The position numbers were made by a program, and so were the translations under genes. A stretch of 64,000 nucleotides of DNA from Octopus vulgaris (lineage: Eukaryota), in the NCBI GenBank assembly GCA_951406725.2, contig CATOCA020000001.1:1116001-1180000 (forward strand), given 5' to 3'. The notes beneath the pieces are model-generated. The model did no database searches and was not told the DNA's origin. It worked only from the letters and a program-made list of their open reading frames with translations. Of the stretch, positions 13,305 through 61,195 are shown piece after piece (position 1 is the stretch's first letter; the number at the start of each line of letters is the position of its first letter).

Positions 13305-13376
13305 ATTTTCTGTAAACTTGGAAGATTTCGAAAGGATCCTTTTTGGATGGTTGTGATTATATTGTTACTGAGAGAT
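13305..13376 (-). CDS. LRR protein exon (72 nt, phase 2-2): SLSNNIITTIQKGSFRNLPSLQKI
   Basis: Acceptor gttttatgtttcag, donor gtaagt, exactly 72 nt. Matches the typical-class LRR xLxxNxIxxIxxgxFxxLxxLxxL. Confidence 0.85.
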
Positions 13377-16600: not shown

Positions 16601-17625
16601 ACCATCTTGTGGTCACTGTAGCTGACCATGTGGAGTTGCGGACTCTTAACTAGGTTCTTATCTACCTTCCTAATTAATATCCTGTCTATGTATGACCTTA
16701 ACGATCCGTCGCTTGTTGACCACGTCCACAGTGGAGCGTCCGGACGTTCCAGTCTATATGGGTCTACCAGCTCAAAACGTCTTAGTAGACTCAGGAAGCA
16801 AGCATTTCCTTTTCTATTTCTGTCTGTTTGCGAGCCTTCACAGTCTACCCGCACATCGCAGATTGTGTTGAAGTCACCTAACATTACTACAGGGTACGAT
16901 GTACTCAGAAACTTTTCCAGATTCCGAAAATAATCACTTTTCCCGTTTCTGGCGGGTGCGTAAACCGCAACCAGCCTGATTGTCTTACGACTGCTGAACG
17001 TCAACTCAACGACGACCAGCCTACCTTCCGGATCTGCAAAAATCAACTTTTTATCAGAAACCCGGTTCTTTTTAACCAGGACCAACACCCCGCTTCCGCC
17101 GCTCGACGGGTTCGGAGAGATAATACTCTCGTAACCGTTGAACAGCGGGAGCAGATCTCTTGGCCCCTTTAACCGGGTTTCTGTGGCAACAACAACATCT
17201 AAATCCCGTGACCTGATGTCGTTTAGGAGGCGCCCTTGCCTCCAGCTCGTCATCAGGCCACGCACATTTATGCATCCTACACAAATACGAGACATTGCTT
17301 CCCTTTTGCCGTGTTTCTTATTTTCCTGTTGCACCTGTGGGGAAGTCCGCCTTAAACAGTGTCTCGTCTAAGTCGTGTCGCGGACCGACTATGTCCCCTG
17401 GGTATTGGCTCTTTAGAATGTTTGAGTTCATTACGTCTATTTTGAATACCTCTGTATTTTTTGATAATATCCGGTACGTCTCCATTCTTTCTGCGTTCGG
17501 TATTTTCATTAAGTCACTCATAAGACTGTCGTTTTTTTTGTTAATTGAGATGAAAACATCCTCTATAATTCTTTTTTGGGGGCTTGTTGTGGAGGATGGG
17601 GAGGCAAAGGAGGACTGAGGGGAGT
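13663..17625 (-). mobile_element. Tx1/L1-clade LINE, 5'-truncated within ORF1, near-intact ORF2
   Basis: APE endonuclease, RT and C-terminal knuckle. A-rich 3' region (poly-T on + at 13802-13815, aataaa near 13665). Confidence 0.93.
13897..17295 (-). pseudogene. Tx1 ORF2 (APE-RT) with a single in-frame stop at 16408-16410
   Basis: INVRGL, VAVYAP, LGDFN, IDRILI, SDH; APGLDGLP, FRPITLLN, DQSKAFD, RQGCPLSP, AYADD. The two ORFs are in frame (66 nt apart). Confidence 0.92.
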
Positions 17626-18214
<589 letters not shown>

Positions 18215-18628: not shown

Positions 18629-19126
18629 ATGAATAACGTATAGTCTACTGACTAATTCGTCTTTTGTGCTAGGTCACTGGTAATAAGAATTTATTTTTAT
18701 TACCCTATTTACTATGTTATAAATGTTGCTCGATAAATTTGCTAGTAATTTTTTACCGGCATACCCTCTGTTCGCCGGGTATAGGTTGCGTCTGCGCACT
18801 GGTCTGAAAAGTTAGAGTATACATATCGCTAGATTTGTACGTGCTTCTAGCGATATGTACAGCTTGGTTTCTAAAGGCTTTCTGCTGACGAGTCTGGCCT
18901 TAGCAGATGAATTCTATTCATTTGCTAAAAAGAAGATGAAACTGCAGTACAGGATTAGCTGAGATGGTTAACGTTTTTGATTTTCATTCCATTTCATGAA
19001 TTTATCCCCCCCCCCTGTGTATTTAGTACTTGCTTCTTTATTTGGAAGCCTTTTAATGTACTTATATATGAATAACGTATAGTCTAATGACTAATTCGTC
19101 TTTTGTGCTAGGTCTCTGGTGATAAA

Positions 19127-19130
<4 letters not shown>
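18629..19130 (+). mobile_element. Retrozyme/PLE-derived non-coding element, 439-nt unit with ~60-nt direct terminal repeat
   Basis: 18629-18690 is repeated at 19068-19130. Contains an HHR and extra hairpins; abuts (TA)n. Confidence 0.7.
18880..18954 (+). ncRNA. Type I hammerhead ribozyme
   Basis: ttctg-CTGACGA-gtct[long hairpin]agat-GAAA-ctgcag-TA-cagga. Stems I/II pair and stem III is the palindrome ACTGCAGT. Confidence 0.8.
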
Positions 19131-19178
<48 letters not shown>

Positions 19179-23917: not shown

Positions 23918-23989
23918 AGAAGTATATATATCGATATAATGATAACGATATAATGATAACATTATTTTAGATAGCAGCACCAATAATAA

Positions 23990-25300
23990 TAATAATAATA
24001 ATGAAAGTAGGACTTTAGAACCAAATGAAAATGTAGGAATACCTATAAAGGATAATACTGTTTTAGATAATAATATTAACTACAATAATGATAGAGTTTT
24101 TTTAGATAATAACAATAATCAAAATCATGATAAATTTACCCGCTCTGCTTCGAGCAACAGTAATATAAGACTTCTATCCTCAAGGTATTCCACCTCTAAT
24201 TATAATGCCCCTAGATGTAACTGCAGAATTAAATCAAAATGCCCGGCCCCTGATTTATGCGGGTTAATTAACATAATCTATAAGTGCTCCGTAACCACAG
24301 ATAATAATAAGTTCTCTTATGTTGGATGCACTGTAAATTTTAAACAGAGATTGAATAACCATCTCTCATCTTTTAAATTACGTCATAAGGCTGATAGCAC
24401 TACTCTTTCTAGTAAAATTTGGGAACTAAAAAACAATAATATCAAATATAACCTTAATTGGGAATTAGTCAGAAGAGCAAAACCCTATAAAAATAGCAGA
24501 GTAGGCTGCCAACTTTGCTCCATGGAAGCATTTGAAATACTAATGTATAAAAATAATGGAGATATTCAATTCAACAGCAGAATTGAACTTGGAAAATCTT
24601 GTATACATGCTCGGTTTAAGACTCTTAAATATTTTAAATGATATTTTATATCATATCTCAATTGATAACTGTATACTGAAATCATTTTACATAAAATTCA
24701 TTTTGACTTACATATCACTCCTACATAGTATATTATATATTTAACTGGAAAGATAAGTTCTAACTAGCTATGATTATAATTTTTTCTCTCTCTGATGGTA
24801 CTATTAAATACTTATTGACTTAAATTATTTGATTTATTTCTATTGGACCATATTATTAATAAATTAAATCTTGCTCTATTTATATCTCCATTTCTTAGTC
24901 TATTTGTTATCCCTTTACAAATATTAGTTAGTTAATTCTCTTAATTTCTTTTAAATTTTTAAAAATTAATTCTGCTAATACCAGACCTATCGTAGTGTAT
25001 TGTGATGTGATATAATATATCAAAATAATATAATATAATATAGTGTAGTATATTATAGTTTAGTATAATAATAATATAATTGTTTAATTTCATTTAAAAA
25101 CATTATGTATGTATTATAGTTTAGTATATTAATAATATAATAGTTTAATTTCATTTTAAAACAACCCCATTTTTCTTTCCTTTCTAATGACCTCTTTGTA
25201 ACCTGACAATCTATTAATAGTAACATTTATAAATAAAGAAATAAATTGTTGACCTCAGTTCGAATTTGTTCCAAACAAACTTAGACTTTTTGTTAGTATC
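23990..25300 (+). mobile_element. Penelope-like element 3' part with GIY-YIG endonuclease
   Basis: CNCRIKSKCP..C..NIIYKC..SYVGCT.NFKQRLNNH..WELV..CQLC..E (~24215-24641). Degenerate HHR-like motif at 25200-25250. Confidence 0.85.
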
Positions 25301-26045
25301 AAATTGTGCCCATCCCCTTAGCTTCCCCTTTCCTTTCTCTTTGACAGCGTAAATAGCAGTAACTGATTAAATTCCTACCCCCTTCCTCCTCTTTCTGTGA
25401 TTCTTTGAAAATTTCATTAACAACCTGAACCACTACAATATAAGACTGTCATTTGTGCTTCTCATTCGGACTCCCTGATATTTTCGCATGATTGTACCCT
25501 AAATCTCTCCACAAAACTGGATTACGAACTATAAGGACATACACAAATTTTGTACGTTCAAGACTTTTTCATCGGATCTCAAAAAAATCGAACTTATCAG
25601 CGATTCTTGCAAATTTCAATAACAATCTGTTCCTCTACACGATATGACAGTCACTATGTTTTTACTCAGACTTTCCTATACATGATGTGGCAGTCACTTT
25701 GCCTCTTACTCGGATTTTCAGAAATTTTGCATGACTGTATCCGAAAATTTCTTCATACAACTTGATCAAATATTCAATATGAGCTATCTGTAGACATGCA
25801 TGAATTCTATAGGTTTAAAATCTTTCATCGGATCTCCATGAATCGAACTTTCTTCAATGCAGCTAATCTTACAACCTCTTTTGTATCTACCCCTTTTGAT
25901 GTTTGGGAATTCTCCGATATTTTTTCGGCTGACGAGTACGAGCCATCTGTATTCACTGCATTTTTTGTAGCTTATTAAAGATGTCCTCGTACGAAACGAT
26001 CGTACCGAGATTTTAATCCATTCTTGTTGCTTTTTCCTATTTTTT

Positions 26046-26104
<59 letters not shown>

Positions 26105-31290: not shown

Positions 31291-31317
<27 letters not shown>

Positions 31318-32443: not shown

Positions 32444-35400
32444 TCTCTCTATATATAAAACTGAGAATGTGTGTCTGTCTGTCTGTGTGTTTCCCTAAAA
32501 CTTGTGAACTGCACAACAATTTCATTCAAATTTTCCACATGCCTTACTTAAGGTCCAGGGAGTGTCATGGTAAAAAAAAATCAACTTTTTCCCTAGGGCG
32601 AGCTCACAGCAATATCATATCTTCTCCACTATTTCAGTCTTACGTGTTAAAAGTGAAGCAAAAACATATCTTTATTGTAATGCAGGTACTTTCACTTTAA
32701 TACTGAAACTATGAAAGTGAAAGTATTATATAATAGGGATCAACCATTAACAGTGGTCATCCATTTTGCTAGAAGAAGATCCACTATGTTCTTATGTGCT
32801 ACACCACTGGTTTTCAATACATATTAATCAAATTAATATTCAATTTTTCACCCTTATTATATGTGTCTGTGTGTGTATTAGCAATTCGTATAAAATTGCA
32901 TCAATGACTTGAAATTGAATAAGTGGTTTCACATAAATGGGGATAAATTAAAAAGGTTTGTTGTTATTATTATTACTGTTTGACTATTGTAATCACGTTT
33001 GTTGGTTCCTCGTCAGGGAAACGTTGTTGTGTTGCATTTGTTATATAATTGTAAACCGTAAGCCTTCCCCTTTCTGAGAAGGGCTTTGGTTATTGTTTAA
33101 AAATTGAATTGTGTCCCTGTTTGGGGAAATTGACAATACTTTCACCGTCTTTACGGAATCATTTTTGTTAAAATGCCTTCGATAGAAGAAAGTCCAAAAA
33201 TGAATTTCGCTGCAGCTGTACACTTCTATACAAGAGGGAGGACAAGATCCAATTGATCAAAATTGCAAGAGACGGGCCTACAATTCCAGTCTGTTATATA
33301 TTATGAGTATTGTTATCACTTGCGATATCAAGATATAACTTTGTATTTTGTATTTTATGTGTAGATGTATATATATAAATGTACATGTAATATGTACACA
33401 TATATATACTCATATGTACATGCATAATATATCTACCCATACACACATACGCACACACACACATGCATAGGGGCAGGTGTGGCTGTGTGGTAACAAACTA
33501 CGTTCCAAACACATGGTCCTGGGTTCAGTCCCACTGTGTGGTGACTTGGCATGTGTCTTCTGCTGTAGCCTGAGACCAACAAAAGCCTTCTCGGTGGATT
33601 TTGTACATATATACAGGCATACATATATATATATATACATGCATACGTACATATTCGGCATAAACACTCTACCACTACAACTAATAACTGTTGGTAACAC
33701 TTTCAAACCTGCCTTACATTCGAACCGGAATCTCAAAAACACTGTCCCCTTCAGCGCCATGCTCAACTGCTCTATCCTGACATGGAGGGTATCAGCAATG
33801 AAATCTATAACAAAACACTCATTGACATTGAAAACAGAATTGCTAAACTGGGTGGAAAGGAATTGTCGACGTATAGCCTGCCACAAGCATTCAGGTGAGG
33901 GTCAAATAGCCTTCCCACTGCTGTCATTCGTGAAACAACTTACGACACTCAAGCGCTTTCAAAGTACATTGTTGAAAATGAGCCTAAATTACTTCCGGAC
34001 TAGCTGCAGGCCTACAGAACTATTCTTAACAGTGTACGCCAACGCGATGGACGAATCTTCCTCGATGCTCCTGGAGGGACAGGAAAACATTTATTACAAA
34101 GCTTCTCCTTGCAGAAGTTAGGCAGCATCAGGACATTGCAGTAGATGTAGCCTCCTCTGGCATTGCAGCTAATTTGTAACCCGGTGGCAGGACAGCACAC
34201 TCAACTTTTAAACTCCCTCTCAATTTAGCAGCATCCGAAATGCCTTCATGCAACATCAACAAAAGCTCAGATCAGGGACAAGAACTTAAAATGTGTTATC
34301 TAATTGTCTGGGATGAGTGCACTATGGCTCACAAGGGAGCTTTGGAAGCATGAGATAGAGCCCTGAAAGACATCCGCGACTGTCAGGCTCCGATGGGAGG
34401 TGTAACGCTTCTGTAGTCAGGTGATTTCAGACAAACTCTTCCTGTCATTCCGAAAGGCACTAGAGCAGATTAAGTCCAAGCATGCCTAAAGTCCTCTAAC
34501 CTGTGGCATCATGTTACAATCCTCAGTCTCACCACTAACATGAGAGCTCAGCTACACGGCGACAAAATGTCCGCAAAGTTTGCACATGACATTTTGACAT
34601 TTGGTGAAGGTAAGATGCCTCTCGATGCTGCAGGACAAATAGAAGTGTGGTCATTTTCCTGTGTTGTTAATTCTGTAGATGACCTAAAAAACAAAGTCTT
34701 TCCCAGCTTCACACAAAACTACCAAAATCACAATTGGCTGTGTGAAAGAGCAATATTAGCTCCAAAAAACGTCGCTGTTAACAAAATCAATCAACAGCTA
34801 ATGCATTCTCTTCCCGATAGTATACACACTTACAAGTCTGTTGATACAATTCCACATATAAATGAAGTTGTGAACTATCCTCCTGAATTTCTCAATTCAC
34901 CGGAGCCTCCTGGTCTACCTCCACACATATTAGCACTTAAAGTTGGAACTCCTGTAACGCTACTCCGCAATCTGGAACCACCAAGACTTTGCAATGGAAC
35001 ACGACTGGTGATAAAGAAAATCATGTCACACGTTATCGAGGCAATCATTCTTTCTGGATGTGGAAAAGCTGATGACGTCTTTATTCCAAGATTTCCTCTT
35101 ACTCCATCAGGAGCAGAAATTCCATTTACATTCAGAAGATTGTAATTTCCCCTTCGTGTCAGCTTTGCCATGTCCATTAACAAATCTCAGGGTCAAACCC
35201 TCTCTGTAGCTGGTCTTCGCTTGGAAGAGCCCTGCTTCTCGCATGGGCAACTGTATGTTGGCTGCTCAAGAGTAGGAACCAAAAGAAACCTTTTTGTATA
35301 TGCTCCACAAGGGAAAACAAGGAACATTGTTTACAACGAGGTGTTATAATCTCAACAGCCAGGAGGTATATACATGATAACCTTTTTTTAACAAACTTCA

Positions 35401-35533
35401 TGTACTTTCATGTATTTATATTAATATACATATATATAGGTGTGTGTGTGTATCCATATATATATATATATATAACAGAAAAGTCTAATTCTTCAATTGA
35501 ATGTACCCGGGCAACGCCAGGTATCTCTGCTAG
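32444..35533 (+). mobile_element. Nested, internally deleted Helitron with Pif1 helicase remnant
   Basis: A|TCTCTCTATATATAAAA start; acccgggcaacgccaggt hairpin plus CTAG|T end. Helicase motifs IVWDE, GDFRQTLP, RAILAPKN, LCNGTRL, INKSQGQTL, FSHGQLYV (34190-35350). Confidence 0.92.
33469..33605 (+). mobile_element. tRNA SINE 5' half inside the nested Helitron
   Basis: Same family as 23751. Confidence 0.85.
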
Positions 35534-36808
35534 TTTCATATATTTTCTTTCACTTTCTGCTCTCTTGATTACACAGACGTCCAATACAATAGCTACATTT
35601 TCGTTCTCTAAAAAAGGTACGTGTCTATTTTTCTTATAAGTGTATACCAATGACTTCTTCCATAATTTTCCACTTAGCTTTTATCTTCACTTTTCTTAAA
35701 TTGGATACGTCTGCTACTAAGTTGCAGAACTTTGGCAGTATAGTTAAAAATCCTTTCTGCTTTATTTCTTACATACAATTTGCCTGTAAATTCTTACAGC
35801 TTCAATTTTTGGTGATGATTGAAATGTCAAACATTTTCTAACTGTTAAATCAATTCTTAACGTCAACTTCTTACTGCCTCTTCTATTTTTTTCATAGCAC
35901 CCATACTTACCGTGAAACTCGATAAAAACTTCTTCCCCACTTCGTTCTTCCATTAAAACAACCAGTTGTTCACACAGCCACCATATACTTTTCCGCGAGC
36001 AACAAGGGGACTACAGGATGAGTTAGCTAAAACTTTCCCTATGCTGTCTCTCTTCTTTCACCTCTTCGTGGGGTTAATTATCTTCAACGTTAGTTACCTT
36101 TTCTCCTTGAAACTACATATTACGCACAATTGTTGGATTAATACAGTGGGGTGTTTTGGGGGAGATTTGGCTGCTATTTCTACTAGGTCTACCTACCATG
36201 TAGACGTCTGAACTTAATTTTCATTCACAGATTTGCATTTCAAAAATTTAACATAATCTTTTCCATAAATCAACTATCGAAAAATTTTCTACCATCACCT
36301 CACATTTTCTATGTATGTGTGTGTACCTTAAAAGACGTGATTAGACGGAGGTCCAACAGAATAGTTCTCACAAACAGACGTCGTACAAGTTCTTTCTTCA
36401 CAACTCCTGAAGCTGTTTTTGCGAAGATATTTTCACTTGTCCGTGCATTGCTATTACAGACAAATTAACAACAATTCCACTCCAGAGATAAACACAAACC
36501 ACCTCTTGCAGACTGCAAAAGTCCTGCCAAATTAGCCGGAAAACACACACACACACGTCCATTTCATATATCTTCTTCAAAGCTGCATGCTTTTTTTGAA
36601 ACATTTCACTATTTTTTTCTTATTTATCGTTATACGTTTCCAACTATAATAACAGATAAAGATTAATACTTTGTTCAACAACATTAACGTTTCACTTTCA
36701 GACACAGGTTCAAGTTGCAAAAAAAAACTCAACTTTCGTTACAATTATTTTTTGCTTCTTCAAAAAATTTCATGACGTTTGCCTCAGTAAAAACCATCTT
36801 TACAGATA

Positions 36809-39800
36809 ATGCCTAACCGAAAACAATCAATGCTCTGTACCAAAAGGAATGCCCTCCTAAAACAGCGAAAAAAGGAGTTGCGTTCACAGGTACGTTTTTC
36901 AACATTCATATCATTTCGATTTTGCTTCTACACATTCTCCTCCTGTATCCCATTTCAATATTGCACTTTCATATGTTTTCTACTATTCCTTTCAGGAAAC
37001 ACAAGAAGCAAGAGAGGCCCGTCTTGCTGATCAGCGTAGTCGTGATCAACGCTCACTATGTGACGAACCTGTTGAAGCAAGGCAGGCCCGTCTTGCTTTC
37101 ATGCGTATTCGAAATCGGCGCTCACTCCTTGTGGTGTCAGAAGAAGCAAGGCAAGCTCGTCTTGCCGCCCAGCGTAGTCATAATCAATGCTCACTCCTTC
37201 AGGAGCCTGCTGAAGCAAGAGAGGCCCGCCCCGCTGCCCAACATAGTCAACGCCAGATATCAAGTCTTCAGGAATCATCGGAGGCTATGGAAAACAGGTT
37301 GGCAGGTCGACGTCAAAAAAATATTGCTGCTGCAAGGGGCGCATTTTGGGTGAGAGCTGGATTCAGATACAGTCCTGCTGATGATTTCTCCAATCACCTG
37401 GACGTGACTCTTGGTAAAATGGACAGGGAATGCCGATTTTGTCAAGCTAAGTAGTGGGCTGGTGAGGCAGCTGGTCTTTGTTGTTCTGGAGGCAAGGTTC
37501 GATTTCAGCCGCTCGCAGATCCACCTGAAGTTCTGAAAATCTCCTCCTCAATAGCTCCGACTACGCCAAGAAATTCCGAAAAGGCATTTGGAGTTATAAC
37601 TCCTGCTTCCCTATGAACTCTTTTGCCGTAAAGAACATCCACGACAAACATAACATCAACAACGTCAATATTGATGGAAATTGGGCGGTTAATCCTGCAA
37701 ACAAAAAGAAGGAGTTGCATTACACCTTCAAGATTCAAGGTCAATGTTATCATCGCATGGGAAGTCTTTATCCTCAGCCTACCAAGGAACCCAAGTTCTT
37801 TCAGATTTTCTTCATGGGTTGTTCAAACGCAGAAGGTATCCAACGGTGCAACAGAAATTCAGATGTTGACGCAGCAATTGTTGCTGAACTCCAACATATG
37901 CTTCATGCAACACACCCTTATGTCAACGAATTGAAGAATGCGTTGCAGATTTTGGAAGCCCAACCTGAGCTAAAATTTATAATTAAAGCCTAGAGGCGAC
38001 CTGCTGGTGAGCACCCGCGACCTTTCAATGCTCCAACCACCAACAAGGTTGCAGCAATCATAGTCGGCGAAGAAAATGGCAAGCGTGATATTGTCTTCCA
38101 GCACCGCGATAGCCGACTGTCTTTTGTTTCGAAACCTATCGGTCTTACGACTGCCTGCAGTACTCCCTACTGTTTCCCCTTTGGAGAGGATGGCTACAGC
38201 TTTCACCAACGCCATGTTGATCCAATCACGGGTGCTGAATTAACCAAGGCTGTTTCCTGCAAGGAATTCTATGCCTTCCGTCTTATGGTCAGAGAAGGTC
38301 AGTTCAACCAACTACTACGGTACAAGTAAGTCACAAATCAATTCTTGGTTGACATGTTTGCCAAGGTTGAAGGTGAAAGGTTTCTTTGTATTCGTTAAAA
38401 TCAAAAGAAATTGCGTGTGGATCGATATCTTACCGTTCATGTCCAGCTGTATGTTAATGCAAGAAACATTGGCCTTCCGGTGATACGTCCTTCCAGCCAT
38501 ACCGGGTCTCGACGGTATATGCATCAGCGGACACAGGATGCCATGGCATATGTCCGTAAATTTAGCGGACATGACCTCTTAATCACCTTTACGTGCAACT
38601 CAACTTGGCAAGAGATAAAGGAAAACTTATTCGAGGGCCAGGCTGCATGCGACAGGCACGACTTAGTGGCCAGAGTTTTCCACGGAAAATTGCAGAAATT
38701 TATGTGGTTATTGAAAATTGATGCTGTCTACAGAAAACTTAACGCGTGGATGTACACTGTAGAATGGCAAAAGCGGGGTCTTCCACACACCCATATACTG
38801 ATTTGGTGCCAAGAAATAATCAGACCTGCGGACATCGATCAAATTAAATGTGCAGAGTTGCCCAAACCTAATGTCAACTTGCAGCTATTCCAAATCGTGT
38901 CGGCGCATATGATACACGGGCCCTGTGGTGTCTTGGATCCTAATTCTCCATGTATGGAAAAAAATAGATGTTCAAAGAACTATCCCAGGGCTTTCAACAA
39001 GGTTACATTTACTAGTATTTGCGGCTACCCAATTTACTAACGACGTGCCCCTCACTTTGGAGGAATTTCGGCGAAAAAAAGGATAAGGAGCAAGGAAATT
39101 GCCATCAACAACAGTATGGTTGTTCCCTACAGCCCTTTCCTCCTTAAAACTTTCAACGCCCACATCAACGTTGAATCTTGCACTTCGATTAAAGGCATCA
39201 AGTACATATGCAAACATGTAAAGAGGGGCAGCGACATGGCTGTTTTGGGTGTGCATGATGAAGAAACAGCCAACGATAAAATCCTTCAATACGTTATGGG
39301 CAGGTATATTTCGTTCAATATGGCGGCATGGCGCATTCTAGATTTTGATATTCACCAGTCCTCTGCAGCTGTTTTTGGCCTAGATGTACACTTAGAAAAT
39401 AGGCAACGTGTTTACTTCACTGAGAACACCGCCGCAAATGTACTCAAAAAGCCACCGGAAACAACGCTTACAGCATTCTTTAAGTCGTGTACTTCCGATT
39501 CCTTTGCGCAAACTCTACTTTATGACGATGTACCGTCCTACTTCACTTGGACTAACAAAAAATGGCAAAGGTGGCGGCAGGGTGTGCGAATCGACAATGA
39601 GGTTGGCGAGGTAATCTACAAAGGAAACATGATCGATCGTGTCCACACTGTACACCCAAATCATCAGGAGTGATTTTTTGGGGATGATTCTGTTTCATAT
39701 GAAAGGCCCAACATCATTTGCCCACGTCAGATCATTCGATGGACAAATGTGTTGCACTTACAGGGAAGCTTGCTTGCGACGGGGACTGCTCGAGGATGAG

Positions 39801-41545
39801 GGTCTCTGGAACACGGCATTGCAAGAGGTCTCTGAATGCAGGACACCAGAAGTAATGCGCTGAATATTTTGTCTCGTCTTGCTATTCAGTAATGTGTCTG
39901 ACCCTCTTCATTTGTGGGACACATTTAAAGATAGTTTTTCCGAAGACTATCTCCGACGACTTCAAGCCGAAGATCCAACGGCTGGATTCGACTTCAATGA
40001 CGTCATCTACAACACAGCCCTCCTCGATTTGCAATCGCGACTGCAAGCTATGGGAGGAGTTGGAGTACTCAGATTTCAGTCTGCCGTCTCCGCGGGACAT
40101 TTCAAATGCTTTAGCTGCTGAGTACATGTGAGAGTTGAGCTACAACACGCAGGAAATGGTGGCGCAGGTTGCTCAGGATGTGCCTAGACTTTTGGAAGTA
40201 CAGAGAATTGAATACAACAGGTTCCTCGCAAGTATTAATTCCAACGAAAGACATTTTTTTTTTGGATGCTCCCGGCAGAACCGGAAAAAACGTTTCTCAT
40301 GAACCTCCCACTCGCCAATATTCTCCAGGAAAATGGGATTGCCATAGCGGTTGCATCCAGCGGCATCGCAGCAACTTTACTGCATGACGGTCGTACGGCA
40401 CACTCAGCATTCAAATTACCACTAGACTTGACCAAACAGGGAAATCCAACTTGCAATGTTAGTCGCGGCTCAGCCATGGGGAATCTTCTCACTGAGTGCA
40501 GCCTTATCATTTGGGATGAGGAAGCCATGTGTTATAAGGCAGCATTTGAGGCGCTCGAGCGGTCTCTTCAAGTTCTGAGACGGAATATGAGAGTGGAGAG
40601 TGGAGTGATTGTTCTGCTTGCTGGCAACTTCCGACAAACTCTACCTGTCATTCCCTGGGGGAAAAGAGCTAACGAAGTAAATGCTTCCATAAAATCATCC
40701 TAGTTATGGCACCACAGCGAGAAACTTCACCTGACTACGAACATGAGAGTTCAAATGTTTGGCGACGAAAATGCGGCCACATTCTCGGCGCAGCTTCTCG
40801 ATGTTAGTAATGGAACTGTAGCTGGCGATACTGATGGTTTCATCCATTTACCATTTGGTAACATCGTGCCTACCAAAGATGATTTGATTTCTGCAGTTTT
40901 TCCTGACATTGCAAGCCAAAGCCTTCACACAACTTGCCTACAAGGAATAGCAATTTTGGCGCCTCACAATAAAACAGTCGACGCTATCAATAATAAACCT
41001 TTTGATCTGCTTCCTGGAGAAAAACTCTCCTTCAAGTCCATTGACACGCATGAAAACCTGGATGATATGACCGTTTTCGCAACAGCATTTCTTAATTCCC
41101 AAACGCCCACAGGACTTCAGCCTCTGGAACTCCATCTCAAGGATGGCGTGCCCATCATGCCGCTGCGGAATTTGGATGCTGAAATAATGTGTAACGGCAC
41201 GCGAATGATAATAAAATATATATACTCCCGAGTTCTGCAGGCAAACATCTTGAATGGACCAGCCACTGGTGAAGATGTTCTTATAACCCCAATATCCCTC
41301 ACTCCCTCCGGCACGATCTACAAATTTAAGCGGCTTCAATTTCCTATCAAACTCTACTTTGCTTTGAAAATATATAAGGTACAAGGTCAATCATTGCAAA
41401 TGGTTGGTTTAAATCTCACAGAACAAGTGTTCTCCCACGGTCAACTCACCGTTTGATGCTCCCATGTTGGCGGCACACGAAGTCTAGACATTTGTGCATC
41501 AGAAGGGAAAACGAGAAATGTGGCCTACAAAGAAGCGCTCCTCTG
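36809..41545 (+). pseudogene. Helitron Rep/Helicase (STPR repeats, HUH endonuclease, Pif1), many stops/frameshifts; intron 36890-36995
   Basis: EAREARL repeats, CRFCQAK..CCSGGKV, ITFTCN, EWQKRGLPHTHIL (HUH), IKYICK, DAPGRTGK, IIWDE, MCNGTR, FSHGQL. Confidence 0.92.
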
Positions 41546-49032: not shown

Positions 49033-49162
49033 GAGGGACACACCAAACGTTGTTTTATGTTGTGGACGAGTAGCTACATTAACATCCTTCCTAAAGAAAT
49101 TGAAACGGAATATGCAGCCATCACACTGGACAGTTTGACCAAATTGCCCCAGCTGTAGCTCA
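49033..49162 (-). CDS. Possible 130-nt exon, paralog of 12743-12872
   Basis: Acceptor ttttctatttgtacag, donor gtacgt, open frame ELQLGQFGQTVQCDGCIFRFNFFRKD... Confidence 0.3.
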
Positions 49163-49581: not shown

Positions 49582-49653
49582 ATTTTCTGTAAACTTTGAA
49601 GGTTTTGAAAGGATCCTTGTGGGATGGTTGTGATCTGATTCTGATGGAGATAT
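49582..49653 (-). CDS. LRR protein exon (72 nt, phase 2-2): YLHQNQITTIPQGSFQNLQSLQKI
   Basis: Acceptor gttttatgtttcag, donor gtaagt, 72 nt, canonical typical-class LRR. Confidence 0.87.
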
Positions 49654-50242
49654 CTGAAACATAAAACACAGTCCAAAAGAAAGAGTATTAAAAAGAATTC
49701 TTATAAAATATTAATTCTTGTATCTTTAGAATCATATTAATAAAAAGAGGACGGTGAAGGAGAGAATGGCCGAAATGATGTTGATGATGATGATGAGGAG
49801 GAGGAGGATTGCAATGTTGATTGTAAATGTTGTAATAATGACGGTGAGAAGGAAAAATGATGATGATTATTATCGAAAACGATGACAAACGCTACCGATT
49901 AATTGGTGATGAAGACGTTGATTATTATGATGTTCATAACGAAGGTGATGGTGATTCTGCATGCTAGAAATAGCAGAGTAAATGGGGGAAGGAAATAGTT
50001 ATGATGACATGATAAATTATAACGATTAGTGAATACGAAAATATGATTAGCAGAAGGACTATGAATATGATAGCCCTGAAGATGATACTGATGATGATGA
50101 TGATGATGATGATGATGACGGCGATGATGATGATGACAATGATGACGATGATGATGATGAAAGATGTGATGAAAAATCAGAAATTAATGAGAATAACGAA
50201 GGTGAAGGAAAATAAATCATAGAATTATAGATATAGAAAAAT

Positions 50243-51336: not shown

Positions 51337-51804
51337 TTGTATTTAGGAATGGTCAGTTTGCCAGTTTAGCCAATAAAAAACACACGCACTATATATTTGG
51401 TGTTACTTTGCTTCAGCGTTATTTATTTTTTACATCAATCTTACTCTTATTTCGGCCAGAGATATTTCGTCACGCTCCTGTGACCTCGTCAGTGGTTCCT
51501 TGCTTTCTTCATTTATATTTGTGTGTCTCTTCTTACTAACGGTCAGCCATTTTGTATTTTGTATTTCTATTGTATATGTCTTCATTTGCGTCTGTGTATA
51601 CCTCAATATGTGTCTATATTTAATTAAAGTGTGTGTGTCTGTGGGAGGGAGTGCCTGTAATATTTGTATCTCCTGTTTATATACGTTCGAAAGAAGATTA
51701 AGATTAATGTTAAAAATAAATAAAGATGAATCAAAGTAACACCAAATATATAGTGCGTGAGTTTTTATTGGCTAAACTGGCAAAATGACCATTCCTAAAT
51801 ACAA
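51337..51804 (-). mobile_element. PLE-type element with ~73-bp inverted repeats and an HHR at 51456-51495
   Basis: 51337-51410 is inverted at 51732-51804. Minus strand reads cca-CTGACGA-g-gtcac-aggagc-gtgac-GAAA-tatc-TC-tgg. Confidence 0.7.
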
Positions 51805-52348: not shown

Positions 52349-53011
52349 GTAGTAGTAGTAGTAGTAGTAGAAGAAGAAGAAGAAGAAGAATATGTTAATT
52401 AGTCCATCGGTAAAGCTTTCTCGTGATTAGAGAAAAAAGAGGGTGTACGAAAAAGAGCGAAAGAGTAATGTCTATGACCTGAGGTAGAAAGAACGTGACT
52501 GTAATGCTTTCACGTGATTAGTTGAATGGAATGAGAGACCGAGAGAAAGAAAAAGGAATGAGAAAACGAAAGTAAGTCGAAAAGTGGAGCAGAAAGAGAG
52601 GGAGAGGGAGAGGGAGAAAAGGGGAGAGAAAAAAGACCGGGGGTGAAAAAGTGGGATAGGACATGTGGTAGGGGGAACGTAATATTTATTACGTGATGAA
52701 AAAGTTAGTTGAAGGTAGTGATACTGAGGAGGGTTACGAATATAATTTTAGCAGAGCGGTGATGTTCTGATGGTGAGATTAAAGGAAGGCAGATACGTAG
52801 AAAAAAAGATAGATAGATAAACTGAGAAAATGAGAGAAAGGGGAGTGAGTGACAGTGGTAGTGTTTGTGGTGGAAGTGGTAATTGTAAGTGCATAATGCA
52901 AAGTAACTTTTCAATTGAACAAATTATTTTATACCACCTTTCACTTAACGCATGCTCATAACTGCAATTCTGTTAAATATTCACACTTATTTACAGTGTC
53001 ATATTTTAGGT

Positions 53012-53070
<59 letters not shown>

Positions 53071-53288
53071 ATGAAGTCTTTTACTCTACAGCAAAGGAAT
53101 TCATCAGGAAGCGTGGGCAGTATATTTAAAAAAACCGTTACGGTTGCAATATACATCATATAATTAAGGGCTAAAGAGGGTTATTCTAAAGCCAAATACA
53201 CTGTTTTATCCACTTATAATCCGCTTGTTACAGGAAAATTGAAACTGAAAACGGGCAACTAACCTTTAGAAAATTTAAATTTCGTTAT

Positions 53289-53352
53289 CTCTATATTGAA
53301 TCAATTTCGGACTTAATCTTATAAAAAAAGATATATTCCTTCTTCAGTAGAA
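53289..53352 (-). ncRNA. Type I hammerhead ribozyme (inverted copy)
   Basis: Reverse complement of 53469-53534 apart from T-run length. Confidence 0.8.
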
Positions 53353-53468
53353 CTTTCGATGGGATATAAATAAAATACTCACGCATGATCATGGAAAAAG
53401 CACAAGCTAAAAACATAACTACACTTGAGTACATCACTTATATCTAAAAATAAAAATTCTACTGAAAG

Positions 53469-53534
53469 TTCTACTGAAGAAGGAATATATCTTTTTTTTT
53501 ATAAGATTAAGTCCGAAATTGATTCAATATAGAG
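53469..53534 (+). ncRNA. Type I hammerhead ribozyme
   Basis: ttcta-CTGAAGA-agga..atctt(T)n..aagat..tcc-GAAA-ttga-t-tcaa-TA-tagag. Confidence 0.82.
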
Positions 53535-53967
53535 ATAACGAAATTTAAATTTTCTAAAGGTTAGTTGCCCGTTTTCAGTTTCAATTTTCCTGTAACAAGC
53601 GGATTATAAGTGGATAAAACAGTGTATTTGGCTTTAGAATAACCCTCTTTAGCCCTTAATTATATGATGTATATTGCAACCGTAACGGTTTTTTTTTAAA
53701 TATACTGCCCACGCTTCCTGATGAATTCCTTTGCTGTAGAGTAAGGGACTTCATCCTATATTGCTTAGTAGTAAACTCGATGCTTGCTACAGGAGGACTG
53801 GTAACCATTACAATTTGTAGCGGCGAAAGGTCTAGACGTTGTTTTCTGAGGCTGACCAAAGAATTTTTATTTTTAGATATAAGTGATGTACTCAAGTGTA
53901 GTTATGTTTTTAGCTTGTGCTTTTTCCATGACCATGCGTGAGTATTTTATTTATATTCCATCGAAAG

Positions 53968-54032
53968 TTCTACTGAAGAAGGAATATATCTTTTTTTTAT
54001 AAGATTAAGTCCGAAATTGATTCAATATAGAG
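53968..54032 (+). ncRNA. Type I hammerhead ribozyme (tandem copy)
   Basis: Identical core 499 nt downstream of the first. Confidence 0.82.
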
Positions 54033-54162
54033 ATAACGAAATTTAAATTTTCTAAAGGTTAGTTGCCCGTTTTCAGTTTCAATTTTCCTGTAACAAGCGG
54101 ATTATAAGTGGATAAAACAGTGTATTTGGCTTTAGAATAACCCTCTTTATCCCTTAATTATA

Positions 54163-54199
<37 letters not shown>

Positions 54200-54206
<7 letters not shown>

Positions 54207-57200
54207 CAATTAAGAAATATACCCATTATAATTAAAATATATATATTTCAAATAAAATAAAGGTGGACACAGTAAATTCCATCTCTGCAAGATCCCGGTT
54301 GATGTTGTTACTGCTTCTCATACATTCTGCCGTTGGTTGTGCTTCTGTTACGGTGAGATAGAAATTCGCAGTTTACGGTTATTTGATCCTTGTTCCAAAG
54401 CTGTGCTTATGAAATAAGCAAATTACAAAATTTGACTGAACAATGGATAGTTAAAGAAGATTAGAAGCTACTCGCGAGAGGGTTAGGCACTACAGGCAGC
54501 AGATAAGAGAAGAACAGCGGTAAGAAACCAGAGAAAGGTACCAACAGATGAGAGGATCTGCAATAGATGAAGAGCAACGCAAGGCACAATTGTAGTGAGA
54601 GAGAATGCGAGACCAAGGTAGAAGACAGGATGAAGAAGAACAAACACAGTAGAAGGAACAACAAAGATTGATATTTCTGCGGAGAATGGAAAACATGAAT
54701 GATATGCAGCGTGCGCAGTATCAGGACCAACAGAAAAGCGTAATGTAACAGAGAAGGGAGAATATGGATGATTTGGAAAGGGCTGCTTGTCTCCAAGGTC
54801 AAACAGAGAGACATCAAGATGGAGTTGCAAGTATGAATGCTGAACAGGCGTTACGTTTGCGAGATGAACAGGTGCAACGAAAGCGTGAAGCAAGACATGG
54901 ACTACCACTGAACAGACACAATAATCCTAAACGAACCTATCGTATTGGTGATATGTACTTATATTGCGAGTATTGTGGAGCACTGAACTTTAAATATTAA
55001 GACTTCATGTTCAGTCACAATAATAAAGTGAATTTTCCTCCACTGTAACTAAACCCTCAGACTTTGAAGCGTTTGTCTGAGAAAATTACCAAGAGTCTGC
55101 TTCATTTCGAAAAAAACATCAGCAATTACAACTGCATATCTTCCTTTACGTCATTTGGTGTGAATCTCTCTGTGCCACAAGGAAGAGGTCTACATTGTTT
55201 CTGTATTGTTGTGGAAGGATTCCGACCACTTTCCAATTGACTAAAAGGGAACTGACATATTCCTATTAAATAGACAACTGTCGAGTCTTCATCAATTAAT
55301 TGGTAAATAGTTCACTGTGAGCCATTGACAGAGAGCGTTGGGTAATCGATTCGCGTCGTGTAAACACTTTCTTTCCCCCGATTCCTTAAATCATACGTTC
55401 CAAACCAGGGTATAAAAGTGGCGAAGAGTTCTTCGAAGTTTGCGTTGGACGTTTAAATTTGTTTGGGATGGGTATGAAACCAAAGAAAAATTGTTTAAGA
55501 TAGAAGGCTTATTGGCGTCTGTGGTGCAGTTGCAACAGCAACAATAGTAACAACAACAAGAGCAACTACAACAGCAACAACAAGAAAACCAAGAGTTGCT
55601 GGAATCAATGTTAAAGAAGTCTAAAAATACTTCAGGCGTGAACTTGCCAGACAGCGTAGCAATCTCTATTGAAGAATTCAGTTATAATCCAGAAGATGGG
55701 ATTACCTTCTCTGCATATTTTCGAAGATACGAATAAATTCTCAAAGAAGAATTTAAAAATTGATCTGAGAGGAAAAATAGTACCACTACTTTGTAAGACA
55801 GGTATCCCTTGCCGAATACAAAAAATATAGTAATTATATTCTGCCCATGAAGTCAAGTGAGATTTGTTTCAATAAAAACTAACATTTTATCAAATGATTT
55901 AGAACTGGACGAAAATTAACTCTTCAGACAGAAGCAGAAGAATGCCAGAAAAGACGACGCAGAAAACAATGAAGAAAAAGATTGCTCTCATATTCCAGTG
56001 TCTCCACCGTAACGGATAAGAAATAAGACAAAAAATGTCAAGAAGGAGTCCATGTTGTGGTCTACATTTTAAAAGTAACTGCCCGTTTAAAATCCAAAAT
56101 ACGAAATTTTATCTAAACGTTTCAGTGAAAGAAGTTCTCTGCTAAATACTTGAGGACAGTTTTTACATTTTGTCCAAAAACATGAAGATTTCGTCACCTG
56201 TGCCGAGGATGTTAACGGAAAGTGTAAAAAATTCAAATCATATGAATTAAGATGATGTTCAAATGCATATTTTTGGTTTAAGGCCTAACTGCAAGCAAAG
56301 ATGGCGATATATGTTCACGGATGTCAACAAAATTAGAACTGGACAAAAAGTAACTCTACAGACAGAAGCAGAAGAATGTCAGGAAAGACGACGCAGAAAA
56401 AAATGAAGAAAGTGACGCCCAAAACGAAATTGAAGAAAAAGATTGCTCTCATATTCCAGTGTCTCAACCGTAACGGAGAAGAAATAAGAGAAAAAATGTC
56501 AAGATCGAATCAATGTTATGGGTGCGGTAGTCAACATTTTAAAAGTAATTGCCCGTTTAAAAATATAAAAGGCGTCAAATGTGGCAAGAGAGATCATAAA
56601 AAAATCACACTGTAGAACAAACCTGGAAAACATTTCAACAGAAAGAAAACACGAAAACAGGTTATCGGTGACCAAAAAACGAACAGTCTCAAAGGAAATT
56701 TGTGTACGTAAAGTTGCAACTAGATAAGGGCAGTGATATCTCGATAATTAACACAGATATATAGAAAAAAACAGAAGACCTAGATTAAAAGACATTTCGA
56801 AAATTGTAGGTGGTGTTTCAGGAAAATAATTACATTTTAATGGCGTAATGATAAACCACGTTCCATTTCGTGGGAAAACCTTAAAAACCAAAGGTTTTGT
56901 GTTCAATAATATCCCAAATTTATTCGGAACACTGAATAGAATTGTTTACCTTATGGGAACTCCCCATAAATCTTTTCAGTGAAAATGTGAATGGTTTTCT
57001 TGCCAATACAAATGAATCGTCGGACGATTTGTAGAAATAATTTTAAAAGATTTTTCCTGAAGTTCTCTCTGATAAATTAGATCTCAGCATCACAACGAAA
57101 ACGAAGTTCCAAGTAAAAGTAAATGCCAAACCGGTATTTAAATATAAGCGAACTGTAACTTTTGCATCGTTGGAACAGATATGCTTTTGCGTCGTTAGAA

Positions 57201-60200
57201 ACAAATAAACAAAATCAGAGTGTATGCTGATTTTTTCCACTGGTTTAAATGAGTGTCTTAAAACGTTCCACTATCCGCTACCTACCCTGGGGGATATATT
57301 TGTAAAATTAGACGGTGGCAAGGTATATTCTTAATTGGATATCTCTGATGCGTACCTACATATTAGAGTAGACGATGAATGCTATAAATACATAAAAATT
57401 AACGCACATATATATACAACAGGTTACTGTGTCTTTAATGTAAAACCGGCGATTTGTCAACAGCTTATGGATGCAGTGTTAGCGGATAGTGAATTTGCAT
57501 TTTCATATCCGGATGATATACTCATTAAAAGCGAATCACGGGATCAACATGTAGAGCACATAATATATATGTTCGAAAAAATTAGGGATTACATTGAAAA
57601 AGAAAGCGTGAATTTTCTTCTTAACAAAAATAAAATTGGACAAACAATTGAAAGAAATGGACGAGGACCAGATCCGTTGAAGACAGACGCAATTAAATAC
57701 AGGCTCCCCCCGACAAATATAAGGACCTTACATGATTGCTTTGGAGACAGGCTAATTCTTACCAAACTTATATTCTAAATATGCATAGGGTAAGTGTTAC
57801 GGTAGATCATGTATTTAAAAAATGTCAATTGAAATTGCTCTGAAAAAAAGATGGTAACATGAAGGCGGTGGTTCTTGATATCAGCAGAAAATATTACAGC
57901 CAAATCAAAAAAGAGGCTCTTGTAATTATTTTTGCCGTAGAAAATTGCATAGATTTTTACACGGCAGAAGTTTTTGAATACAGACAGATCATCGTCCGTT
58001 ATTATCAGTATACGAGTAAAAGAAATAAATATCTAGCCGTACTGCTAATAGGCTGCAACGCTGGGGTACGGTATCATTAAACTATGAATTTAAGATAGAG
58101 TATATACCATCTAAATAATTAGGACACGGTAATTGTTTATCAAGACCGATTTCAGAAAATGCTGAACCATTTGAAGATACCGTGATTGCTAATTTGCGAG
58201 CGGAAAATGAAATTAAAAGCAAACTGTATAACTCCATGCGCGAACTGCTATTTACGTTACAGGACATAAAACTACAATTGGGAAACGATATATTCATTAG
58301 AAAATGAAAGAAATGCAGAAGGGTAAAAGAGGTAAAAGATATTCGAGCCTATCACAAGGTGTGACAATGTGCTGATGTATGCACAAAGAGTCGTAGTGCC
58401 AGCCACACTACAAAAGCAATTACTAAAGGAATTTCATATTGAGTCAAAGGGATTTCGATAATGAAATCGTTAATGAGAAGTTAGGTATACTGGCCAACAA
58501 CGGACTGTAACGTTGAAGATATAGTGATAGTATGCAATACGCTGTTCTCTAGCTCATAATACACCCGTCACAAAATGGCACCCGTGGCCAAAATCACTTA
58601 AGGTTTCATATCACTTCATTTTGGGGGAGTGTTTTTCAACGTGGTCTGAAGTGCATTAATATAGAAAGCCGACATCTCTGGTTACAGTGATATTCGATCT
58701 TTGTCAGAAAGATCAGATCCATCTTTGATCAGCCGATACCGAGTGAAAATATAAAAAAAGGAACAATATTTCAAAATTCTTCAAGTTAGGTGACAATGTT
58801 TTTTAAAGACCTATAGATATAGTAAAGAAGGATTGGAGGATGGTACAATTATTAAATAAATTGCAAGAATGATATTCCTGGTAAAAGGTAAAACAAATAT
58901 CGAACATAAAAGACTTATTAAACAACTTAAAACCTGATTCAAGGAAAAATCAGACAAAAGAAGTGAATTTTTGATGAAAGTATTGCACGACACGTTTGAA
59001 GTACCAACACAGAAACAATTTGTAATTACACATTCTTGCACCAGAAAACGAAACGAATGGAAACACAAGAATTGAGCCCTAAGCATAAGAGATATTAAAA
59101 CTCTGAGCGACTTTAATTCTCAAGTGGAGAATTTAGGGGAGACTAATTCTATAAAGGAGAGATGCTGTGGAAAGATTCTGACAACCTTCCAAGTGACTAA
59201 AAGTGGTCTGACACATTTCCCTTACATGGAGAACTGTCTAGTCGTAAGCAACTGATTGTGAACAATTGATTGGTAAGCATTTCTCTATGATCCGTTGGCA
59301 GAGAACGTCGAGTCTCATGTAATAGTAATCGTATTGCGTCGTGTAAACAGCTTCGTTAAATTATATATCCAATACCAGGATATAGAACGTATTCAGGGCC
59401 AAACTTAGCACAACACTACGAACTGTCAATGGTAACCTGCAGTACAGTCAGTTGTATATTATTAATGCATCAAAGAGTGGAAGCAAGTCAGAACTACCAA
59501 AGCTCTTCTGAAAGAATGGGTGTCATGTGCAACAAGTAAATCCTTATGCTGAGTTATAAGGGAACATGCACTTAATTGAACAACAAGAGATTGGAAGTGC
59601 CAGGAGTGAAAATGTACAATTACGAAAGTGTGAAATACATTTCAAAAGAACGGGATATATAAGGCGCTACAATTTTTCCCCTAGCAATGAAATAACTGCA
59701 CCCTGAAAACCCTAATTGCCATGAGAGAGAAAATAATCTGCAGCGAAATAAGACTTTTGAAAACCGATATATCATTGGATTTCTGAAGGATATGGTGGAC
59801 AGACATGTATTTGATGTAAGACTAACTCATGTCCGTGTTATCGAGTTTCAAAAGAGAGGACTTCCACACTCCCGTATGCTCGTAGACAAAGTGAAGATCA
59901 GAGATGATATAGACAGAATGGTACCAGCAGAAATTTCTGATTCAAATGATTTAATCTTACATGATTTAATTTTTAAAAATTCATGAGACTTAGACCTTGT
60001 GGTGTTGATAACCCCTCCTCGCAATACATGGGGAATGGCTCTTGCCAAACAAAGTTTCCCAAGAACTACAGAAATGAGACACTACTAAATATTAATGGAT
60101 ATCCAGAATACAGGAGGCACAATAAAGGGATCATATCACAAGTTGGATGCCATTCTGTTGACAACTGGTATGTCGTTCCATTCTATGCTTACCTATTAAA

Positions 60201-61195
60201 GAAATTCCGAGCTCATATTGATGTAGAAGTTTGCTCATCTGTAAAAATGTCAAGTATATATGCAAGTATGTCTACAACGGTCGCGATAGCGCTTCACTTG
60301 AAGTAAGGAATGATGCAGTTGCAGAAGATGGACAGACTCAGCAACCTCATGGTTAAATCAGAAATTATTTTGCGTGTGGATATGTTTCACCCTCTGAAGC
60401 CTTATGGAGAATGTCTACGTAGAAGCTGCATGACTCGTCCCACACTGTCTACAGATAAGCAGTTCACTTTGAAGACCAGCGGAGACTGAGCTTTCACTGA
60501 GGTAGCACTTAGCAACCTAGTCAAGAACAGAGAGATCGAGACAATACTCTCACTGCATGGTTCAAACTAAATGAGCACGATTAACGGAAGTACTTGTACC
60601 CTAACATTCCTATGCGTTATGTGTTTAATGAACGTACAAAAACCATGAACACTCAGGAGAAAAATCAATACCATCGGCTGCAGAATGAACACAGTGAGTC
60701 CTAAGGACGTAAAAAAAATTTCATTACGATTGCTATTTCGGATGTTCCAGGTGCTAAGCGCTTTGAGAAGTGAGCACTGTAGGATGTGAAATCTATGCAA
60801 CATTTAAATATGCGTACATATGAGTTGGTCTCCTCCAAAATGATGAGGGTTTGGAGCATACTATACTTGAAGCTGCTGCGTATCGGATGTCATTTCAGTT
60901 GCGTATTACGTTTGCTGTCCTCTGCACATATTCAAGTTCTTCCAATGTTCTTCGCCTGTGGAATACTGACAAGAATTCTATGATGGAAGATTATGCTCAC
61001 CGAGGGCTGAATGCAGACTCTACACTTCATAAATTCTGTGTTAATTGAAAATGGCATTAGCTGGTTTAATATTAGCTTGCTTGAACCAATTGGAATGTAA
61101 CGGGTTGAGCAGAAAGATGACATGAAGCACCCACTCATTGCAACCCTTACCAACGAGAAGAAAGGGATCGCCGATGCAGTCATTAAAGACAGTTG
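54200..61195 (+). mobile_element. Degenerate Helitron split by a Gypsy insertion
   Basis: IGDMYLYCEYCGALNF, SFTSFG, CF|RIQGQ, VIEFQKRGLPHSRML (HUH), GYPEYRR, VVPF..YLLKKFRAHIDVEVC. Confidence 0.85.
55207..59387 (+). mobile_element. Full-length degenerate Ty3/Gypsy LTR retrotransposon
   Basis: LTRs 55207-~55416 and 59163-59387, PBS-like tggcgaagag, PPT aaaggagaga, TSD tgtat/cgtat. Gag knuckle CYGCGSQHFKSNC, protease LDKGSDISII, RT LDISDAY..YPDDILI, RNase H YSQIKKEAL, integrase remnant. Confidence 0.9.

Follow-up and report, generated by a model that had tools for sequence, protein, structure and literature searches.

A young hammerhead-bearing insert in the Octopus vulgaris genome, probably a non-LTR retrozyme of Penelope type

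Layout of the insert and its surroundings

Analysis of the window, the whole stretch of 64,000 nucleotides of Octopus vulgaris DNA, showed an insert at 53066-54163 made of an inverted arm and a forward arm of the same repeated unit. The features of the insert and of its surroundings are shown in Table 1.

Table 1. Coordinates of the insert and of other features in the window
Feature	Position	Strand	Remarks
Left (TA)n tract, target site	53016..53068	.	Shares TATAT microhomology with the 3' end of the inverted copy
Inverted, 5'-truncated unit copy, 395 nt	53066..53460	-	Unit positions 53860 -> 53761(+498)
Type I hammerhead of the inverted copy	53289..53352	-	Core start 53347; predicted cut between 53294 and 53293
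Filler at the inversion junction, 5 nt	53461..53465	.	Repeats neighbouring stem I/core letters; probable microhomology join
Forward array, 698 nt (1.40 x 498-nt unit)	53466..54163	+	
Hammerhead 1	53469..53534	+	Core start 53474; predicted cut after 53529
Predicted excised monomer or circle, 498 nt, 33.5% GC	53530..54027	+	Circular MFE -124.3 kcal/mol, z -4.5
Hammerhead 2	53968..54032	+	Core start 53973; extra A 53980; predicted cut after 54027
Right (TA)n tract	54159..54204	.	Forward copy stops in the TA-rich part of the unit, 96 nt short of the inverted-copy end
Empty paralogous site, 11-nt TA tract	18140..18210	.	Sequence comparison within the window
LRR exon, 72 nt, AG..GT	49582..49653	-	LRR_8, E 4e-4, below the Pfam cut-off; insert ~3.4 kb 5' of the exon
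Paralogous LRR exon, 72 nt	13305..13376	-	Sequence comparison
Second, older hammerhead unit, ~439 nt	18629..19140	+	73-bp direct repeat at 90%; core 18885; predicted cut after 18949
Third type I hammerhead, very clean	25915..26048	+	Stem I 6 bp, stem II 7 bp, palindromic stem III
GIY-YIG endonuclease ORF	23946..24641	+	E 1.4e-4, just under the cut-off; Atlas 0.96; Cys-rich motif before it
LINE with AP endonuclease, RT and zf-RVT frames (319 and 836 aa)	13900..17600	-	Pfam
Fragmented Helitron-like PIF1 helicase and Rep frames	34030..41456 and 59696..61045	+	
Broken LTR-retrotransposon-like gag/pol remnants, many short frames	55551..59255	+	RVT_1 at 57335-57775

The initial annotation had described a non-coding unit present about 1.4 times head-to-tail, an inverted copy of about 390 nt crossing the unit junction, near identity of the copies, and a paralogous block lacking the insert, and all of this agreed with the layout obtained. 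The two overlapping forward copies showed 1 substitution in 199 aligned letters and 1 gap (one T), while the inverted copy differed from the forward array at 53932, 53957, 54150 and 53745-53746 and by indels in the T-tract. The longest stop-to-stop frame of the insert was 93 aa, and its two longest frames had no Pfam match. The unit length, previously given as 499 nt, was corrected to 498 nt from the distance between the cleavage sites; 499 nt applied only upstream of the T-tract (9 versus 8 T). The paralogous block has visibly diverged from the block with the insert (76-87% over the aligned pieces), and because of this the empty site dates the insert only loosely.

A frame and Pfam scan found no RT or GIY-YIG ORF in the insert, both of which mark autonomous EN+ Penelope-like elements, and it is therefore not an autonomous Penelope element. 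No LTR pair was evident in the insert, nor did it contain a poly(A), a defined 3' tail or a readable TSD. The unit had no match elsewhere in the 64-kb window.

The LRR exon near the insert lies on the minus strand, which places the inverted copy on the sense strand of the LRR gene, as had been annotated. No host exon was found upstream of the insert among the 300 ORFs scanned, and an intronic position is unproven. The LRR exons sit in duplicated blocks (12551-13653 and 48826-49923, 83%), and this pattern suggests a tandem LRR gene duplication or repeated exon blocks.

Two further hammerhead regions were found in the window. The older unit at 18629-19140 has a perfect 8-nt palindromic stem III, ends in (TA)n and has a circular fold with z -4.13; by its sequence features it is probably another retrozyme family. 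The hammerhead at 25915-26048 has a predicted cut after 26004 and z -3.45, and lies 44 nt before a (TA)n tract. The GIY-YIG ORF is probably the C-terminal part of a Penelope-like element; a descriptor scan found no hammerhead downstream of it, and no full-length relative was present among 65 candidates. Local alignment of the unit with the other two hammerhead regions, and with the sequence 3' of the GIY-YIG ORF, yielded nothing beyond gappy AT-rich matches, with no shuffle control. A frame at 7623-7955 (-), which we take to resemble the C-terminal part of a Penelope-type reverse transcriptase, gave no Pfam match; part of it is copied at 28521-28701 (93%).

Among the 120 matches listed for the LINE ORF, 117 of them without a name, the best named relative was from Argonauta hians (60% identity), and the other species-named match was from Caretta caretta (41%); a decayed relative of this LINE lies at 61769-63516. 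Long inverted repeats at 30762-31296 (133 bp, 93%) and 51337-51804 (118 bp, 92%) could form double-stranded RNA.

Hammerhead motif and predicted folding

In all three copies the descriptor scan showed stem I with 5 bp, stem III with 4 bp closed by a triloop, the segments CUGAAGA and GAAA, and the AUA cleavage triplet. The type I core was complete in each of them (C3-U4-G5-A6-N7-G8-A9, G12-A13-A14, A15.1-U16.1 and an NUH triplet), which upholds the claim of three intact type I hammerheads. A motif as good was obtained in 0 of 10,000 dinucleotide shuffles of the unit and in 0 of 30 shuffles of the whole window, while any relaxed motif match occurred in 31 of 10,000 unit shuffles. The core, stem I and AUA had been described correctly; two details had been missed, namely an extra A between A9 and G10.1 in all three hammerheads and an interrupted stem II, in which G10.1-C11.1 opens a proximal part of 3 bp that is followed by an internal loop and a distal stem of 5 bp.

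The hammerheads of Penelope-like elements (PLEs) are described as having an extra base at 9/10.1, a G10.1-C11.1 pair, a long stem II, a short stem I and a palindromic stem III, and as cleaving poorly in vitro (PMC4209133). Judged by these traits, the hammerheads of the insert are of the Penelope (pLTR) type and fall in this reportedly weakly active class.

The Hammerhead_1 check proposed in the initial annotation did not recover the motif: the Rfam hammerhead models gave no match at the gathering score in the 64-kb window and none at E <= 10 in 52900-54300 and 53950-54060. The two other clear hammerheads of the window were likewise missed by Rfam at the gathering score. Matches to Rfam miRNA families were rejected, as they were produced by the inverted repeat and the (TA)n tracts. 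A pattern scan of metagenomes returned 89 loci, which were attributed to chance: none of the 89 was similar to the unit in blastn, nor could any of them form stems I and II.

In an 81-nt context, stems I and II were predicted with P >= 0.86 and stem III with P 0.01. The active fold of the monomer reached -6.1 kcal/mol versus -12.0 for an alternative in which the core pairs with stem III, and the single-sequence MFE of the three motifs was no more stable than that of shuffles (z 0.85, -0.93 and 0.68). The same-strand transcript with two ribozymes (53460-54045, 586 nt) gave P 0.77-0.88 for a dimeric stem III at 10 of 11 positions and 0.01 for the monomeric one, which agrees with the earlier proposal that the palindromic stem III favours a dimeric hammerhead; stem I had P 0.09 or less in this transcript. 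Since the dimeric stem III is likely but stem I is at most 0.09, the folding model favours a dimeric over a monomeric hammerhead and high activity is not assured. A primary paper on dimeric hammerhead cleavage is reportedly that of Lunse et al. The subject is summarised in a review (PMC6765202).

The MFE of the sense 498-nt circle was matched by 0 of 100 shuffles; the antisense circle had z -2.15, and all 13 control windows lay between -1.56 and +2.19 (20 shuffles each). Folding of the complete insert predicts helices of 68+195+30 bp for plus-strand RNA and 53+195+29 bp for minus-strand RNA, which cover hammerhead 1 or the inverted hammerhead in full. Because the complementary arm is transcribed first on either strand, read-through RNA should mask one ribozyme, and the predicted hairpin of ~290 bp should block it and attract ADAR whichever strand is read. 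Release of a monomer from 53066-54163 would need a start site inside the insert. Of the suggestion that two same-strand hammerheads excise an exact monomer, the pair itself stands, 498 nt apart; however, whichever strand is read through, the inverted arm would pair over an entire ribozyme, and for this reason the locus is an unlikely source of monomers and the insert is unlikely to cut the LRR pre-mRNA.

The family in public sequencing runs

The unit was present in 20 of the 24 public runs listed; these 20 came from 9 studies and 6 organism labels, and the other four (runs X21-X24) had next to none of its words, which is uninformative. None of the runs is recorded as RNA. Contigs were placed on the unit from 4 of the 20 unit-bearing runs, here called X5, X2, X8 and X14, of which X8 and X14 are only presumed to be RNA. 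A total of 583 contigs was placed from X5 and 694 from X2, with summed depths of 44,000-668,000 and 12,000-370,000, respectively; the 8 long X5 contigs listed had depths of 28-217. The summed contig depth, which is not a copy number, suggests thousands of unit copies, and all 30 bins of the unit were covered at high depth in both large runs (X5 and X2). The proposed recently active retrozyme family is borne out in that the hammerhead family is young, non-coding, tandem and present in high copy.

The depth maximum in X5 fell at 54006-54056. Sister sequences have the 3' half of the ribozyme in common with the unit here: they match over 54003-54040, and at least 255 letters upstream of it are unlike the unit. 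Among the 24 of 149 loose ends listed, three sister ends keep the core and vary at position 7 and the extra base, and two have damaged cores. The upstream stretch of at least 255 letters could belong to autonomous elements. One of the sister hammerhead families seen at 54003-54060 in X8 and X14 reached depth 60.5 in X8, versus 8 for the 498-nt unit.

Variants that keep or add pairs were found at 53967, 53968, 54001, 54002 and 54009 among the 40 of 65 variants listed. With T at 53967, the allele of 45% of depth in X5 and 94% in X2, stem I would reach 7 bp, T at 54009 (55% in X5 and 42% in X2, sister families included) lengthens the proximal stem II, and C at 53968 changes a U-G into a C-G pair; in two contigs, U-A is replaced by C-G in the distal stem II on one molecule. 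The copies in the window carry the mismatched alleles G53967 and G54009, which are the weaker stem I and stem II alleles of the family, and the looped contig of X8 carries the same two alleles as all three copies.

The joint 54163 -> 53666 was found in X8 and X14, which are two studies, and a similar end-to-start joint was found in X5. X8 record 24 and X14 record 1 both cross 53761/53762 and 54163/53666 with at least 31 letters to the left and right. The former, 526 nt long, closes on itself by a 30-nt overlap, giving a cycle of 496 nt at depth 8. Because X5 has a similar joint, the tandem exists as DNA too and the loop is no proof of a circle; a contig of this form would result just as well from a tandem transcript or carried-over DNA. 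The depth of the unit was low in the presumed RNA runs (8 and 16.5). As read from these contigs, the unit is a family-wide closed cycle and not a private stack of 3' ends. We consider it somewhat more likely than not that the family yields circles in vivo, and unlikely that the locus at 53066-54163 does.

A>G changes accounted for 26 of the 34 places listed in X8. In X14, 14 of the 43 listed places were A>G and 12 were T>C, while the large runs had 3 A>G and 4 T>C of 23 (X5) and 2 A>G and 4 T>C of 18 (X2). Twelve candidate sites were taken from three contigs with mostly one kind of change, each of depth below 5, after 53904, 53880 and 53897 had been dropped because they occurred in DNA or in a mixed contig. 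Nine of the 12 had zero depth in both X5 and X2. Positions 53965, 53966 and 53972 were changed in both studies (X8 and X14), and 53972 is the stem I base beside the core; one hyper-edited contig, X8 record 26 (53882-54091), spans the cleavage site. None of the 12 candidate sites was preceded by G, compared with 13 of 60 and 7 of 52 in the background, a difference in the expected direction that was not significant (p ~0.1). The pattern of changes makes ADAR hyper-editing on both strands probable. Exceptional levels of hyper-editing are reported for octopus, with adjacent inverted repeats as their main source (PMC5625713). The changes seen here hint at a point of control by the host, and the literature searched listed no case of retrozyme editing.

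Origin of the insert and relation to known systems

Both outer ends of the insert are 3' ends of the sense unit, each in a TA-rich spot that overlaps (TA)n; within the unit they are separated by 96 nt. Two cleavage sites are passed in the forward arm and one in the inverted arm. Because neither a 5' nor a 3' end sits on a cleavage site, a linear monomer fresh from cleavage is ruled out as the template. At 53936, A makes up 99.6% (X5) and 99.5% (X2) of the depth, but G is present in both arms; this shared rare allele points to one template or source locus. A circle copied for 1.4 turns and primed twice would explain both arms, and an uncleaved multimer of ~1.3 kb would explain them too. A second inversion junction was seen in X2: the sequence of the loose end at 54098 matches the ribozyme 3' half in reverse complement.

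Private substitutions amounted to 6 in 1,093 nt (0.55%), at 53834, 53932, 53957 and 54150 in the forward arm and at 53079-53080 in the inverted arm. If divergence is taken to accumulate at 0.09 per 25 Myr, as applied to Octopus in PMC13282606, these would place the insertion about 1-2 Myr ago (~1.5 Myr), and the age would be younger if RT or assembly errors are among the substitutions.

The preferred explanation, with a probability of about 0.75, is that one recent insertion event placed here a non-autonomous Penelope-like element of high copy number, that is, a non-LTR retrozyme with a unit of ~496-498 nt. Tandem source loci would be transcribed, which the runs support for the family, and folding together with the literature suggests that two hammerheads would pair through the near-palindromic stem III, cut after AUA and free a monomer. 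The monomer may then be ligated, probably by the host RtcB, into a highly self-paired circle. The presumed enzymes, which would nick both strands of (TA)n, are the RT and GIY-YIG endonuclease supplied by an autonomous Penelope-like element, and a GIY-YIG ORF is present in the window. Each DNA end would prime on a TA-rich spot of the template and be extended through cleavage sites for 698 nt and 395 nt, the two lengths that make up the architecture of the insert, and the two cDNAs would be joined head-to-head by microhomology. Such joining of cDNA ends is known.

The insert itself is, on the folding model, most likely a tolerated dead end, with a hairpin that would mask the ribozyme and serve as an ADAR substrate. 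A wider scheme is speculative and rather doubtful: Penelope machinery, priming twice, would copy the circle beyond a single turn, and the inverted arms so created would form double-stranded RNA that ADAR edits across the ribozyme, A-to-I editing and antisense arms thereby braking ribozyme cleavage and circle supply in a heavily editing animal; if true, the two-armed insert would be direct genomic evidence for circle-templated retrotransposition.

Three other explanations were weighed. In the first, a longer autonomous Penelope-like element would have left its 3' ends (pseudo-LTRs) stacked as a partial tandem specific to this locus, and there would be no free 498-nt RNA cycle. The insertion geometry and the ribozyme type are those of PLE pseudo-LTRs, and the sister sequences with at least 255 unlike upstream letters, where the depth peaks, could be ORF-bearing. 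Such a stack predicts a private junction, but X8 record 24 and X14 record 1 both cross it; the high coverage of all 30 bins in both large runs and the lack of a coding remnant in the unit also argue against it, which leaves this explanation improbable. The idea that the unit is a mobile satellite with a vestigial or too slow ribozyme, moving via uncleaved linear multimeric RNA or DNA amplification without meaningful circular RNA, is of equally low probability. It would account for the weak predicted folding, the low depth in the presumed RNA runs and the edited contig that spans the cleavage site, and the cDNAs pass cleavage sites as an uncleaved multimer of ~1.3 kb would allow; in Xenopus, 8 of 9 predicted dimers were inactive (10.64898/2026.07.22.740005). 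It sits poorly, however, with the core kept in the three sister loose ends while other positions vary (two others being damaged, among the 24 of 149 listed), with stem variants that keep pairing, with the unusually well-folded sense circle, a property shared by the second hammerhead unit of the window, and with 3' ends at different internal TA-rich spots, as expected of a template without a fixed end.

It is very improbable that a LINE of L1-Tx1 or RTE type, and not Penelope machinery, moved a SINE-like unit by twin priming. Twin priming also yields 5' inversions, and LINE remnants with long ORFs are present in the window (13900-17367 and 45477-47934). LINEs are left open as mobilisers in PMC7229834. 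Against this, the insert has neither a poly(A) or defined 3' tail nor a TSD, and the inverted arm duplicates forward-arm sequence instead of continuing it; the ribozyme is also of Penelope type, and Xenopus retrozymes match PLE pseudo-LTRs (10.64898/2026.07.22.740005). The non-LTR retrozyme of Penelope type remains the preferred reading. Penelope-like elements are named a strong candidate mobiliser (PMC7229834), while the precise mobilisation mechanism is described as still to be elucidated (10.64898/2026.07.22.740005). The shared rare allele, the two outward 3' ends primed in (TA)n and the read-through of cleavage sites fit Penelope priming on circular or multimeric RNA.

The insertion form had been called typical of Penelope insertion on account of its inverted 5' segment, and the comparison with EN+ Penelope-like elements agreed with this. 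These elements are described with partial tandems, an adjacent inverted 5'-truncated copy and microsatellite targets without a readable TSD (PMC4209133; Craig et al. 2021, 10.1101/2021.04.23.441226), all of which have their counterpart in the insert, as do the nucleotide between 9 and 10.1 and the palindromic stem III of their hammerheads (PMC4209133). The octopus unit differs in having 0.5 kb and no RT or GIY-YIG ORF, compared with ~3 kb in EN+ elements, and its stem III (4 bp with a triloop, or 10 bp as a dimer) is longer than in minimal hammerheads (PMC4209133). A 30-40 bp tail as described for Penelope-type insertions was not found at the insert, whose 3' ends are offset by 96 nt versus 30-40 nt in Penelope-like elements (10.1101/2021.04.23.441226).

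The metazoan non-LTR retrozymes of coral, mussel and axolotl (Cervera and De la Pena 2020, PMC7229834) are likewise non-coding AT-rich tandems with one type I hammerhead per unit, high copy number and a highly self-paired predicted circle, and cleavage as a dimer, reported for axolotl, is predicted here. The insert shows the features by which metazoan retrozymes are recognised: a non-coding unit of a few hundred bp with GC under 45-50%, two consecutive complete hammerheads, multiple copies and a self-paired predicted circle. Only 1.40 units are present at the octopus locus, though with two complete hammerheads 498 nt apart. The unit of 498 nt exceeds the 150-450 bp given in PMC7229834, and its Penelope-type hammerhead, which has one additional base and a long stem II broken by an internal loop, sets it apart from the retrozymes of that paper. 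The octopus insert also has an inverted arm, whereas the main text of PMC7229834 does not mention 'inverted' and names no cephalopod.

Type I hammerheads have been counted in another cephalopod, the giant squid, with 235 Hammerhead_1 loci in its genome (PMC6962438); this is a model-scan count, the accessible text describes no element, unit or mechanism, and the octopus motif escapes Rfam. In Octopus vulgaris, 190 Penelope-like families make up 6.83% of the genome and 31 of them are recently active (PMC13282606); that paper and its supplement do not mention 'ribozyme', 'hammerhead' or 'retrozyme'. The literature search found no cephalopod retrozyme, though supplements of retrozyme papers may list a cephalopod family. 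This is probably the first retrozyme described for a cephalopod; it would extend retrozymes to octopods and offers a young, clean locus at which to test how animal retrozymes are mobilised.

Both the retrozyme class and its derivation from Penelope have been published. Li, Clavereau and Pollet 2026 (bioRxiv 10.64898/2026.07.22.740005) derive non-LTR retrozymes from Penelope pseudo-LTRs and report cleavage of 1 of 9 predicted Xenopus dimers; they cover 35 species, with no mollusc mentioned in the accessible text. The octopus unit fits their definition of two consecutive hammerheads and their range of 51-972 bp, and the Penelope origin and mobiliser that they propose are the same as here. Their argument is drawn from co-occurrence and pseudo-LTR homology, to which the octopus locus adds insertion-site evidence in the form of a tandem and an inverted arm, both from one template, in a (TA)n target.
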